From an uncultured Prevotellaceae bacterium (GTDB lineage: Bacteria > Bacteroidota > Bacteroidia > Bacteroidales > Bacteroidaceae), in NCBI GenBank assembly GCA_937877605.1, contig CALFJA010000086.1:4384-68383 (forward strand): a stretch of DNA of 64,000 nucleotides, given 5' to 3'. Below the pieces are notes generated by a model, which had not been told where the DNA came from, ran no database searches, and was given only the letters and a program-made list of their open reading frames with translations. Made by a program: the position numbers and the translations under genes. Below are positions 55,444-58,309 of this stretch, in pieces. Numbering within the stretch: position 1 is the stretch's first letter; every line of letters begins with the position of its first letter.

Positions 55444-55555
55444 AGGCAGTCCAGAACCCTCTGCCAAAGCGTCGTAAAAGGTTCTTTCAAGAGTGGTGAA
55501 AGGCATCTGTTTGAAAATAAACGAAGCAAAATGCGGCAGTTCCGAAAAAAACACT

Positions 55556-55563
55556 TAACTTTG
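55556..55563 (+). promoter_or_regulatory. candidate -7 promoter box TAACTTTG upstream of the structured leader and methyltransferase
   Basis: Matches TAnnTTTG. The predicted start of transcription, about 55568-55572, coincides with the base of hairpin 1. Confidence 0.4.
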
Positions 55564-55567
55564 TCTC

Positions 55568-55776
55568 ACGGATGCAGCACACGGCAAGCGAGCCCTGCAT
55601 CCGTCTTCGTGGAAAACTAACAAGCGTTTGCTGTTATTCGGAATACTTCAGAATTTAGCACATTCAAAGAGACAAAACCGAAAGAATAAGTTGCAGGCGC
55701 CTGTGCTATATAGCATGGGCGTGACTTATCCGGTTTTGTAGGCAAGTGCTAAAGCCTTGAAGTATGGATGAGAATA
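55568..55776 (+). ncRNA. candidate structured RNA / long 5' leader (10-bp hairpin plus a 142-nt rod-like hairpin with ~45 bp)
   Basis: Hairpin 1: 55568-55577 pairs with 55595-55604. The rod has six nested helices: 55635-39/55772-76, 55643-50/55758-65, 55655-61/55746-52, 55672-80/55731-39, 55686-91/55724-29 and 55698-707/55712-21. Two G.U pairs are compatible only with a plus-strand transcript. Confidence 0.35.
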
Positions 55777-55820
55777 TCGTTCATGCTTTTTTGTGCTTTG
55801 CATTAGCCTACCCTCCGACT

Positions 55821-55830
55821 GATAAGCATT
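55821..55830. repeat. 10-bp direct repeat GATAAGCATT, left copy
   Basis: An identical 10-mer recurs at 58300-58309. Together they bracket the methyltransferase-nuclease cassette and its terminator. Confidence 0.6.
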
Positions 55831-55851
55831 CGCCTAAAACCTATATGGCAC

Positions 55852-57042
55852 ATGGCTAACCAAACACTCACTGCAGCAAAGAATGCAAAGAAAGACGAGT
55901 TCTATACGCAGTTAAACGACATTGAAAACGAGTTGAAACACTATCGTGAGCACTTTCACAACAAGGTGGTATTGTGCAACTGCGATGATCCCTACGAATC
56001 GAATTTCTTCAAGTATTTTGCGCTCAACTTCAATCAACTGGGGCTGAAGAAACTGATTTGTACCTGCTACGACGGTTCACCCGTACAGGGAACGGAACTG
56101 AACCTGTTTGCCATCGACACTGAAAGTGAAGAGGAACACAGAGTTGCCTACAAGGTGGAAATTTCGGAAGTAACCGATGTGAACGGCGATGGTGCTATTG
56201 ATCTTACCGATGTTCAATATTTACTGCAGAACGACAAGAATCTGCTCACACTCTTGAAAGGCAATGGCGATTTCCGTTCGCAAGAATGTACAGACTTGTT
56301 ACAACAGGCCGACATCGTCTGCACCAATCCACCGTTTTCCCTATTCCGCGAATATGTGGCACAACTGATGAAATATGACAAGTTTTTTTTAATCATAGGA
56401 CCACTTAATGCCATAACATACAAAGAGATATTCCCTCTTATTATGCAAAATAAATTATGGTTAGGATATGGATTTAAAGCAGGGAATGCATTTTTCAAAA
56501 TACCGAAAACGGAACAAAACACATACGCTGAGGGTGTTTTCAATAAAATAACAGGATTAGTAAAATTCAGAAATTGTACATGGTACACCAATCTCGATCA
56601 CCAAAAGCGCCACGAAGAGTTAATTCTTTACAAACACTATACTCCTGAAGAATACCCACGCTACGATAATTACAACGCCATCAATGTGGATAAAGTACAA
56701 GATATTCCTTGTGATTACGATGGCGTGATGGGCGTGCCGATTACCTTTCTGGATAAATACAATCCAGAACAATTTGTCATTATCAATGCCAATGACTTCA
56801 GAAACGCTGAAAATGTACCCGTTAAAGCACACGGATTGATAAAAGACAAAGAGGCCTCCATTACTGAATCCCTAGAGAGAGAGAGAGAGAGAGAGAGAGA
56901 GAGAGAGTACGCATCACTTATGCACGCATCTGCATCAGGAAGAAACAATGAATTGCTTGCGCCTGGAGCAGATGGATGGCATATCAATGGAAAGCGCAAA
57001 TATGCTCGTATCTTCATACGACATAAGAATACCAGGATATGA
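55852..57042 (+). CDS. N6-adenine DNA methyltransferase, EcoRI-methylase-like family, carrying an internal (AG)17 tract
   Basis: KKDEFYTQLNDIENEL N-terminus, catalytic TNPPFS, and GVMGVPITFLDKYNPEQF. The tail is ...INGKRKYARIFIRHKNTRI. Confidence 0.85.
   Translation: MANQTLTAAKNAKKDEFYTQLNDIENELKHYREHFHNKVVLCNCDDPYESNFFKYFALNFNQLGLKKLICTCYDGSPVQGTELNLFAIDTESEEEHRVAYKVEISEVTDVNGDGAIDLTDVQYLLQNDKNLLTLLKGNGDFRSQECTDLLQQADIVCTNPPFSLFREYVAQLMKYDKFFLIIGPLNAITYKEIFPLIMQNKLWLGYGFKAGNAFFKIPKTEQNTYAEGVFNKITGLVKFRNCTWYTNLDHQKRHEELILYKHYTPEEYPRYDNYNAINVDKVQDIPCDYDGVMGVPITFLDKYNPEQFVIINANDFRNAENVPVKAHGLIKDKEASITESLEREREREREREYASLMHASASGRNNELLAPGADGWHINGKRKYARIFIRHKNTRI
56874..56907. repeat. (AG)17 dinucleotide microsatellite inside the methyltransferase CDS
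   Basis: 34 nt of uninterrupted AG, translated as alternating Glu-Arg (ERERERERERE). A T8 run also lies in the same CDS at 56383-56390. Confidence 0.97.
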
Positions 57043-57114
57043 CAAATACGACCGGCCATATCTAAAGGGCAAGAGAATGTACATGAGATTATTTATTGCT
57101 AAAAGAGATAAACA

Positions 57115-58236
57115 ATGAAAATAGAACTAAAGAAAGTAACTGTTGCAGAACTGACTGCAGGCTACGAAGATAACGAAGAAGCTGGTGTGCGTGGATATGG
57201 AGGACTGCTCGATATCCGACCACCTTACCAACGAGAGTTTATCTATGATGAAAAGAAACGCAATGCTGTGATTACCACCGTATTGAATGGCTTTCCACTA
57301 AATGTGATGTATTGGGCTGCAAGAGACAAAGATGCCGAGGTCCCATACGAAGTAATGGACGGACAGCAACGAACCATCAGCCTATGCCAGTATGTAAACG
57401 GCGACTTCGCCTATGATTTTCAATACTTTCATAATCTGACAGAGGTTGACAAGCGAAAGATTTTGGATTATGAATTGATGGTATATGTATGTTCAGGTAA
57501 TGACAAAGAAAAACTGAAATGGTTTGAAACCATTAACATCGCAGGCGAGCGACTCACCCGTCAAGAACTGCGTAATGCAGTGTATGCAGGTCCGTTCGTA
57601 AGCGATGCCAAGCGTTATTTCTCCAAGTCGAACTGCGCTGCCTACAACATGGGACACCATTTGTTGTCAGGCTCACCCATACGGCAAGACTATTTAGAAA
57701 CAGCCTTAAAATGGATGGCAAACTCCCTGAACAAGCCAAGTACCCCGATGAACATAGAAACCTATATGGCACAACACCAACATGATCCTAATGCGTCGCA
57801 GTTATGGCAATATTTCAATGCGGTGATAACATGGGTATTTGCCACTTTCGATGTAGGGAAACGCAAAAAAATCATGAAAGGCGTGGACTGGGGGACACTG
57901 TATGACCGGTTCCATGGTACCGTACTCGACAAAAGTTCACTTGATGCTGAAATAGGACGACTGGTTATTGACTCTGAAGTGCAGACTAAAATGGGTATCT
58001 GCCCCTTTGTCCTCACACGCGACGAGCACTATCTCGGTCTGCGTGCTTTCCCGGAAGACATTAAACTGGCAATCTATGAAAAGCAACAAGGAATCTGTCC
58101 GCTATGCGGCGAACATTTTGAAATAGATCAAATGGAAGGCGATCACATCACACCTTGGGCAGAGGGAGGCCGTACCGTAGAAGATAACTGCCAGATGCTC
58201 TGCCGCGACTGCAACCGCAGAAAAGGAAAGAAATAA
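57115..58236 (+). CDS. DUF262 (ParB/GmrSD N-terminal-like) domain protein with a C-terminal HNH nuclease motif
   Basis: DIRPPYQREFIY and MDGQQRTISL (the DGQQR signature of DUF262). C-terminal CPLCGEHFEIDQMEGDHITPWAEGGRTVEDNCQMLCRDCNRRKGKK is an HNH motif. Confidence 0.85.
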   Translation: MKIELKKVTVAELTAGYEDNEEAGVRGYGGLLDIRPPYQREFIYDEKKRNAVITTVLNGFPLNVMYWAARDKDAEVPYEVMDGQQRTISLCQYVNGDFAYDFQYFHNLTEVDKRKILDYELMVYVCSGNDKEKLKWFETINIAGERLTRQELRNAVYAGPFVSDAKRYFSKSNCAAYNMGHHLLSGSPIRQDYLETALKWMANSLNKPSTPMNIETYMAQHQHDPNASQLWQYFNAVITWVFATFDVGKRKKIMKGVDWGTLYDRFHGTVLDKSSLDAEIGRLVIDSEVQTKMGICPFVLTRDEHYLGLRAFPEDIKLAIYEKQQGICPLCGEHFEIDQMEGDHITPWAEGGRTVEDNCQMLCRDCNRRKGKK

Positions 58237-58255
58237 TTCCCATTACAATAAGAAA

Positions 58256-58287
58256 AAAGAGCGACTACATTGTTGTAATCGCTCTTT
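58256..58287. terminator. bidirectional hairpin between the DUF262-HNH gene and convergent atpG
   Basis: AAAGAGCGA-C-TACA, loop TTGT, TGTA-A-TCGCTCTTT. There is one mismatch, and A/T runs form the outer stem. Confidence 0.6.
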
Positions 58288-58299
58288 ATACAAGTAAAA

Positions 58300-58309
58300 G
58301 ATAAGCATT
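58300..58309. repeat. 10-bp direct repeat GATAAGCATT, right copy (abuts the atpG stop codon)
   Basis: Identical to 55821-55830. Confidence 0.6.

Follow-up and report, generated by a model that had tools for sequence, protein, structure and literature searches.

GmrSD, BrxU and SspE, enzymes that combine a DUF262 domain with a DUF1524 domain, act in Type IV restriction and in phosphorothioate-dependent defence. Among restriction–modification (R-M) systems, the phase-variable Type III mod and Type I hsd systems are described as switching ON and OFF, and in the Type I system NgoAV of Neisseria gonorrhoeae phase variation alters specificity. In NgoAV a repeat tract makes the change, and its HsdS subunit alternates between two forms, one truncated and one fused. 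Here we describe a two-gene cassette in a 64,000-nucleotide (nt) stretch (the window) of contig CALFJA010000086.1 from an uncultured Prevotellaceae bacterium. The gene of an EcoRI-family N6-adenine DNA methyltransferase is followed by that of a nuclease with a ParB/DUF262 nucleoside triphosphatase (NTPase) domain and an HNH domain (Table 1), and beyond a slippery AG repeat the methyltransferase gene offers a separate C-terminal tail in each reading frame. Taken together, the evidence makes it probable that this is a mobile two-gene R-M cassette with a three-tail methyltransferase and expression gated by a leader RNA.

Three methyltransferase tails follow an AG repeat

The methyltransferase matched EcoRI_methylase (PF13651) over profile positions 2–345 of 345 (5e-145; 483.5 bits against a cut-off of 26.4), with its NPPF motif at residues 159–162. 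Past the AG tract all three frames are open, and each closes with the terminal motif of the family, Y-x-R-I-x-I-R. We built a 17-residue hidden Markov model (HMM) of this motif from 67 single-tail homologues and ran it against the six-frame translation of the window (115,282 residues). The three tails were its top three matches (middle, 20.9 bits; long, 16.0; short, 12.1), and the next match scored 7.7. The short isoform (365 amino acids (aa)) covered PF13651 positions 2–345 of 345 at 486.2 bits, and the middle isoform also reached the last position of the profile.

A second assembly of the same organism (L001) has (AG)14 with identical flanks, compared with (AG)17 here, so the coding region of the methyltransferase contains a repeat of variable length, as in a phasevarion and as the original prediction, made from the letters alone, had held in calling the repeat hypermutable. 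The OFF-state truncation that goes with a phasevarion was absent: all frames yield predicted proteins of 365–422 aa that carry the terminal motif. On this basis the AG repeat is predicted to be a selector of tails and not an on/off switch. We found no paper on a three-reading-frame tail design in the literature on three-frame phase variation, and the layout looks new.

Natural variants bear on the same point. In a scan with one genome per species, relatives of the nuclease were encoded in 211 stretches, of which the best 80 were taken for comparison. Two further lineages, about 83% identical in DNA, carry these three tails in unchanged order, one with (AG)12 and the long frame read (L162–L165), the other with (AG)16 plus GG and the middle frame read (L166). 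Comparison of these lineages shows conservation of every tail in the frame that encodes it and drift in the remaining frames of that DNA; the short tail keeps 13–15 of its 16 residues. A single protein cluster of at least 90% identity holds both long isoforms (430, 430 and 426 aa) and short ones (361 and 365 aa); 397-aa close relatives of that cluster carry the middle tail, and the number of Glu-Arg repeats varies among near-identical homologues. Natural isoforms are thus on record for the short (P0245, P0247), middle (P0121, P0122, P0248) and long tails (P0134, P0244, P0246). A G10 tract, set in a different preceding module and again followed by three tails, is present in Fibrobacter intestinalis ATCC 43854 (L037) and in a rumen metagenome-assembled genome (MAG) locus (L019), and each frame of this version is read in a separate sequence (short in L037, middle in P0155, long in L019). 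The remaining 74 loci have a single tail and no repeat.

These variants make it very improbable that the repeat and extra tails are neutral debris, either recombination leftovers plus a microsatellite or an assembly artefact, with only the current frame functional. Modules are clearly shuffled in this family, one homologue (P0127) carries an in-frame internal duplication, and the data are mostly metagenome assemblies, in which repeats are error-prone. Debris would not be expected, however, to keep tails in their own frames across lineages that have diverged so far, to recur as a separate G10 version in a cultured isolate, to appear repeatedly as all three isoforms in different samples, or to occupy the first three ranks of the motif HMM in the whole window.

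The duplication in P0127 (432 aa) consists of a second, in-frame copy of the segment GVPITFLDKYxPxQFEIVG, followed by another tail module. This protein may be an intermediate in the origin of tandem tail cassettes.

The gene pair is conserved, mobile and catalogued

Among the best 80 of the 211 stretches, 77 include DNA upstream of the nuclease gene, and in every one of these the next gene upstream, in the same orientation, is that of an EcoRI-family methyltransferase. In most single-tail loci its stop falls −4 to +18 nt from the nuclease start. The same order was found on plasmids whose hosts belong to Bacteroidota, Proteobacteria, Bacillota and Actinobacteria, the carriers being Chryseobacterium, Aeromonas, Mammaliicoccus, Sulfitobacter, Gordonia, Variovorax, Enterococcus and Lactobacillus, and in the Flavobacterium phage laban6-1, with 36–60% nuclease identity over plasmids and phage; in the most distant pairs, nuclease identity falls to 36–39%. 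At least 8,000 protein clusters, on chromosomes, plasmids and phage, match the methyltransferase and nuclease searches. The neighbours of the cassette here, kpsF and atpG, are absent from the surroundings of all 80 loci; the cassette therefore moves as a unit. The proposal that this is an acquired R-M-type module is supported by these results, and the neighbourhood comparison that had been suggested along with it shows a pair kept together in 77 of 77 loci and on plasmids and phage besides.

The insertion site was approached from its two flanks. In 80 metagenome loci with a KpsF 72–82% identical to that in the window, neither atpG nor the cassette was found within 6 kb, so synteny is not kept at this level of KpsF identity and an empty site was not demonstrable; an exact look-up of AtpG gave matches only in the same organism.

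Five loci have extra genes between methyltransferase and nuclease (L038, 5376–5945; L045, 5415–5986; L055, 3123–4064; L058 and L063, 4878–5987). Judged by eye, the insertions look like genes for Fic-domain proteins, a transposase-type gene and two small open reading frames (ORFs) that form a pair.

Both proteins have models in PADLOC-DB. The methyltransferase matched MTase_II (PDLC03297, 7.5e-121), and residues 1–372 of the nuclease matched REase_II (PDLC03418, 1.2e-121) end to end, over profile positions 1–371 of 372. Methyltransferase and restriction-enzyme matches are thus adjacent, as in a type II R-M system. The original prediction had found no named system for the cassette and had itself listed a match of both proteins to a catalogued R-M type as evidence against that view; because models match both, the cassette cannot be called unclassified. 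Nor is a DUF262 domain joined to an HNH-kind nuclease rare, as had been supposed. In the PADLOC papers, REBASE appears among the references only, and no account of how the REase_II model was built was found. We found no paper characterizing a member of the pair biochemically, and no recognition site, in the literature on DUF262/ParB-HNH proteins and EcoRI-family methyltransferases.

The nuclease joins a ParB-type NTPase domain to an HNH domain

The N-terminal part of the nuclease matched GmrSD_N/DUF262 (PF03235, 4.7e-18, residues 34–157) and its C-terminus matched HNH (1e-15, residues 328–373). No DUF1524 match was obtained at E ≤ 0.01, the nuclease-domain matches being to the HNH-type families PF01844, PF14279 and PF02945 only. 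By Pfam, neither cassette protein has a helicase domain, and with it a Res-type motor of the Type III kind is missing. In 50 nuclease homologues the DUF262 motifs QR, DGQQR and F-x3-N, the D-H of the HNH domain and two CxxC pairs are invariant. A search of solved structures by sequence returned HNH-domain matches only.

The AlphaFold2 (AF2) model of the nuclease had a mean predicted local distance difference test (pLDDT) score of 85.8. Its whole-chain fold matches were weak (E ≥ 3e-3, template modelling (TM) score ≤ 0.24), with BrxU and SspE the best. Ranked below these were the ParB/Noc cytidine triphosphatase (CTPase) domains for the N-terminal part and the HNH domains of Gme-HNH, McrA and Cas9 for the C-terminal part, and fold matching places the NTPase domain in the ParB/Srx type. 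With a ParB nucleotide-binding fold and a His-Me nuclease, the protein would therefore work like a small GmrSD-type enzyme. It departs from the GmrSD family in two defining respects: DUF1524 is absent, and a methyltransferase is always present as its partner. The intact DGQQR motifs raise doubt that cutting would be independent of nucleotide.

A stand-alone Type IV, GmrSD-like nuclease directed against foreign modified DNA, with an unrelated or orphan methyltransferase beside it, would account for the N-terminal DUF262 domain, for BrxU as the best fold match and for a weak match of the HNH part to PADLOC mREase_IV (1e-3). The strict linkage to a methyltransferase, seen at all 77 loci and in many phyla, with genes that often overlap, and the classical HNH domain in place of DUF1524 make this explanation highly unlikely. 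In a second alternative, built on the logic of SspE, the DUF262 domain senses host N6-methyladenine and this licenses the nuclease to nick or cut unmarked invader DNA, so that loss of methylation disarms the nuclease. DUF262 domains do act as modification sensors in GmrSD and SspE, the fold matches include SspE and BrxU, and the QR, DGQQR and F-x3-N motifs are invariant; however, those fold matches are weak, and without a cost to losing methylation, nothing would select for a methyltransferase that is complete in all three frames. We regard this alternative as unlikely, and less so than the Type IV explanation.

Two further PADLOC families, NsnA of Menshen (2e-26, residues 5–206) and PD-T4-2_A (4e-11), matched the DUF262 part only. 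The nuclease was assigned to neither, as the matches are partial and the neighbours are kpsF and atpG instead of NsnB and NsnC.

The repeat selects among versions of a hypervariable module

Seventy paired loci entered the analysis of variability, after three were dropped. From NPxQFEI(I/V) to the terminal motif the methyltransferases are nearly unalignable (mean pairwise identity 0.00–0.09, residues 316–375), and at least 15 types of C-terminal module, 17–70 residues long, occur. A second variable region at residues 196–240 (56437–56571) has at least four sequence types and is shuffled independently of the C-terminal module. The nuclease clades at ~80% and ~61% identity have module types in common, and no block of the nuclease falls below 0.38 identity in the same loci. 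The three tails of the gene fall in different single-tail module types, that of the long tail being homologous to the single tails of L054, L061 and L064; the repeat therefore picks among three versions of the most variable part of the methyltransferase. The module swapped by the frame is probably an element of DNA recognition or of partner contact.

A structural view adds little here. The AF2 model of the methyltransferase scored pLDDT 64.9, with a poor C-terminal third (pLDDT 30–60), Foldseek returned generic Rossmann folds only, and for these reasons the role of the variable module cannot be read from structure. A search of solved structures by sequence gave no match for the methyltransferase.

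If the swapped module is the target-recognition element, each frame would methylate a different sequence. The nuclease would then have no recognition module of its own and would be recruited or licensed by the methyltransferase, after the logic of Type III and Type I systems and with the ParB-type NTPase in place of the helicase motor, and methylation and restriction would switch specificity together, leaving a population heterogeneous against phage. Much of the above fits this idea: the frame-swapped segment is the hypervariable region, a second variable region exists, the same modules recur with both nuclease clades, the nuclease itself has no comparably variable block, the tails are homologous to different single-tail types, the two genes overlap or abut, and the Type I system NgoAV provides a precedent for phase-variable specificity. 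Against it, there is no sign that the module touches DNA, the modules being short and the structure model uninformative there; an interaction of methyltransferase and nuclease would have to be assumed; a switch would expose unmethylated chromosomal sites, with no alleviation mechanism evident; and the short tail has almost no module. We hold the idea to be possible and put it forward tentatively. Equally tentative is its extension to the whole operon, in which the AG or G tract would be a three-position selector of target modules, slippage would randomize the specificity, an NTP-dependent, methyltransferase-guided nuclease would follow each change so that the cell is never unprotected, and a riboregulator of a kind not described before would gate the operon.

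The frame also determines how far the methyltransferase stop lies from the start of the nuclease gene, which may alter translational coupling and so the dose of nuclease. As the general purpose of the switch, coupling was rejected, since no tail of the F. intestinalis locus reaches the nuclease start.

Two other features of the methyltransferase lie outside the tails. An EF-hand/dockerin-like D-x-N-x-D-G-x-x-D loop, DVNGDGAIDLTDV, at residues 108–120 (56174–56209) lies in an insertion between the S-adenosylmethionine (SAM)-binding and NPPF motifs and is unexpected in a DNA methyltransferase; D109, N111, D113, G114 and D120 are invariant in 49 homologues. Many homologues extend 25–50 residues beyond the Y-x-R-I-L-I-R-R motif (L032, L038–L041, L045, L047, L048, L051–L053, L055, L058, L060, L062, L063, L065, L067, L068, L070, L073, L077 and L078). 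Most of these extensions contain a conserved acidic peptide, (L/V)(P/S/Q)(L/M/Q)AAE(P/D/G/A)xxxY, which may be a docking peptide.

A structured leader RNA precedes the methyltransferase gene

Upstream of the methyltransferase gene lies a leader RNA of roughly 150 nt plus a terminator. The leader folds with z = −5.97, and none of 200 shuffles folded as well. The DNA at 55606–55840 is 72–88% identical to that upstream of the methyltransferase in 16 other loci, and in L036 leader identity exceeds that of coding DNA. All these sequences fold into one and the same long interrupted hairpin. Plain MAFFT alignment with RNAalifold missed the long helix through misregistration, so a covariance model seeded on two sequences was used instead. 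Of 81 sources, 18 gave a match to this model, as did each of the five loci L162–L166, and the leader always lay just upstream of the methyltransferase (carriers: L002–L007, L009, L011–L013, L015, L020, L036, L043, L044, L054, L071 and L162–L166). Compensatory changes occur at 27 of 51 pairs. Leader cells were paired in 95.4% of cases compared with 36–40% for slid partners, and none of 500 shuffles reached 95.4%. That a long structured leader precedes the pair had been suggested before, and fold score, conservation and covariation all bear this out.

The 5′ arm of the intrinsic terminator overlaps the 3′ arm of the outer helix of the leader. The terminator helix is kept in 16 loci, with compensatory changes at three pairs and a T-run after it. 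In the RNAalifold result, the conserved block at 55813–55834 and the invariant 5′ block of the leader form a helix of 14 pairs that is nearly invariant and without covariation; this long-range pairing of 55813–55834 with 55621–55642 would bring the start-codon region into the fold. Judged by its predicted helices, we read the leader as a putative attenuator-type regulator of the operon and as a candidate new cis-regulatory RNA. No Rfam 15 family matched at E ≤ 1 within 55000–58200, where weak matches fell only on the 3′ hairpin, and an exact conserved 21-mer of the leader found nothing in viral contigs. No R-M operon is known to have a leader of this kind.

The signals at the two ends of the cassette were less clear than first proposed. 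The TAnnTTTG box assigned to the pair is present, as TAACTTTG, and in homologues a similar box lies just 5′ of the conserved leader block in the alignment; the motif occurs 29 times in the window compared with 31 expected, and at this chance frequency the box alone is therefore no evidence. At the 3′ end, the hairpin described as a bidirectional terminator exists and scores as a terminator on the minus strand, that of atpG, only; on the plus strand its T-run lies inside the stem.

Locus, gene order and base composition

ORF and domain analysis placed the two plus-strand ORFs between minus-strand kpsF and minus-strand atpG, in agreement with the earlier description of a co-oriented pair set among minus-strand genes. 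The guanine + cytosine (G+C) content is 41.1% in the methyltransferase gene, 45.2% in the nuclease gene and 44.4% in the 604-nt spacer upstream, compared with 56.0% in kpsF, 51.3% in atpG and 50.2% in the whole window. The lower G+C of the cassette had been correctly noted, although hand counts of 30–40% against 60–68% overstated the contrast. No direct or inverted repeats that would indicate a transposon or target-site duplication flank the cassette.

Table 1 Features of the cassette and its flanks, with positions in the window; n is the number of AG units, and protein lengths and stop positions for each n are from simulated repeat numbers
Feature	Position	Strand	Basis
kpsF	54264-55247	-	SIS and CBS domains
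TAACTTTG, candidate Bacteroidetes-type -7 box, weak evidence	55556-55563	+	TAnnTTTG match
Structured leader RNA, 5′ hairpin and long interrupted hairpin	55617-55765	+	Covariance model R1, 128 bits, E = 2e-28
Intrinsic terminator in leader (helix 55759-55789 plus T-run)	55759-55799	+	Terminator scan
Block just before methyltransferase start codon, complementary to leader 5′ block 55621-55642	55813-55834	+	RNAalifold
EcoRI-family N6-adenine DNA methyltransferase, current reading (middle tail), 396 aa	55852-57042	+	PF13651, PADLOC MTase_II, NPPF motif
(AG)17 slippery repeat, encodes (Glu-Arg)n	56874-56907	+	Sequence; (AG)14 in L001
Short tail, VRITYARICIRKKQ then stop	56908-56951	+	Frame +2; n = 16 or 19 (365/367 aa); stop 163 nt before nuclease ATG
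Middle tail, ending LLAPGADGWHINGKRKYARIFIRHKNTRI (also given as GADGWHINGKRKYARIFIRHKNTRI) then stop	56908-57042	+	Frame 0, current reading; n = 14 or 17 (394/396 aa); stop 72 nt before nuclease ATG, the gap in the current reading
Long tail, ending IPGYDKYDRPYLKGKRMYMRLFIAKRDKQ then stop	56908-57118	+	Frame +1; n = 15 or 18 (420/422 aa); stop overlaps nuclease ATG (ATGA)
Nuclease: ParB/DUF262 NTPase domain, helical middle domain, zinc-finger HNH; 373 aa	57115-58236	+	Pfam, PADLOC REase_II, AF2
14-bp hairpin common to convergent nuclease gene and atpG	58256-58287	.	Terminator scan
atpG	58309-59274	-	ATP-synt domain

An exact 16-nt direct repeat, AAACCTATATGGCACA, lies at 55837–55852, where it covers the methyltransferase start codon, and again at 57758–57773, inside the nuclease gene. 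By a rough estimate, a chance origin in 3.2 kb is unlikely.

Some four-base palindromes are strongly avoided in the window (1–64000; both strands pooled): ACGT was seen 18 times compared with 353 expected (observed/expected (O/E) 0.05), and O/E was 0.19 for CTAG, 0.32 for GATC and 0.35 for AGCT. This suggests a host lineage long exposed to restriction systems with those sites. In guessing recognition sites from word avoidance, none of ACGT, GATC, AGCT and CTAG could be tied to the cassette; GAATTC, the site in which M.EcoRI itself methylates adenine, and AATT are little avoided (O/E 0.89 and 0.82), which says little about the target of the methyltransferase.

Discussion

In the reading that we favour, the EcoRI-family N6-adenine methyltransferase would mark host DNA, and the co-transcribed DUF262 (ParB-type NTPase)-HNH protein would be its restriction partner, attacking DNA without the mark; strict gene linkage and the database models point to this partner role. 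Slippage in the AG tract would swap the C-terminal cassette among three successive ones, one per frame, each with the terminal strand motif. The methyltransferase would then be complete at any repeat length, and a lethal state with methylase off and nuclease on would not arise, to go by the frames and the natural variants. The leader RNA would gate expression through mutually exclusive antiterminator and terminator helices, with a second pairing to the start-codon region. Support for this reading comes from the family models, the 77 of 77 linkage, the low G+C, the tail HMM, the natural isoforms and the covariation of the leader.

The original prediction had pointed to a paradox in a phase-variable methyltransferase beside a nuclease, which it called suicidal, and had offered the three-frame tails as a way out. 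The paradox is genuine, the three-tail layout resolves it, and open frames, terminal motif and natural isoforms all agree with that answer. ON/OFF switching is dangerous where the nuclease acts independently, and a three-tail gene would offer phase variation without an off state.

Several points weigh against this reading. The two assemblies of the same organism, with (AG)17 and (AG)14, share one frame. For the long isoform, the Pfam alignment ends at profile position 328 of 345, before a 70-residue insert, and the terminal motif of the long tail is the most divergent of the three (YMRLFIA). At pLDDT 30–60 in its C-terminal third, the model of the methyltransferase is no guide to the structural role of the terminal strand. 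The F. intestinalis locus shows that a change of coupling is not general. The DUF262 enzymes studied so far, GmrSD, BrxU and SspE, sense modified and not unmodified DNA. A PADLOC match means that a family is catalogued, not that it is characterized; we found no published assay of the pair, and both restriction and protection by methylation are what we infer.

Cassettes of this kind are already known, in that they are very common and catalogued, and they are apparently unstudied. The novel parts are the three-tail layout, a nuclease with a ParB-type NTPase in a restriction role and the leader RNA. A frameshift-proof design would have evolved at least twice, around an AG and a G tract, and can be searched for in other contingency loci. 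If the tails differ in specificity, they would give gut and rumen Bacteroidales a new means of diversifying both restriction and epigenetic state, and with it a new form of defence at the level of the population. A very common pair, with its at least 8,000 protein clusters, would put a ParB-type NTPase in the role of a restriction subunit, and with the leader an R-M operon would come under the control of a new cis-regulatory RNA. The cultured F. intestinalis ATCC 43854, with the G-tract version, offers an experimental handle.

Comparison with known systems

As in riboswitch and attenuator leaders, an intrinsic terminator comes after a conserved structured domain, and its 5′ arm is in competition with the outer helix of that domain; the cassette leader differs in matching no Rfam family. 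With PADLOC type II R-M systems the cassette shares models that match both proteins, a two-gene operon in which the methyltransferase precedes the nuclease, and mobility across phyla. Its nuclease differs by the ParB/DUF262 NTPase domain with all motifs intact, which is not expected in a classical, cofactor-free Type II enzyme.

Like GmrSD, BrxU and SspE, which give its best whole-chain fold matches, the nuclease has a helical middle part flanked by an N-terminal DUF262 NTPase domain and a C-terminal His-Me-finger nuclease. It departs from them in carrying a zinc-finger HNH (PF01844) and not DUF1524, in its length (373 aa compared with about 560–770 aa) and in its constant pairing with a methyltransferase, and sequence similarity is confined to the domains.

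The AG repeat recalls phase-variable Type III mod and Type I hsd systems, which likewise have a simple-sequence repeat within the coding sequence for an R-M methyltransferase, with natural variation in repeat number, but in the cassette no frame truncates the protein and three full-length isoforms are predicted. The nearest parallel in outcome is with NgoAV, where phase variation also changes the form of an R-M component rather than abolishing it; in the cassette there are three states, they lie within the methyltransferase itself, and each has a pre-built C-terminal cassette.

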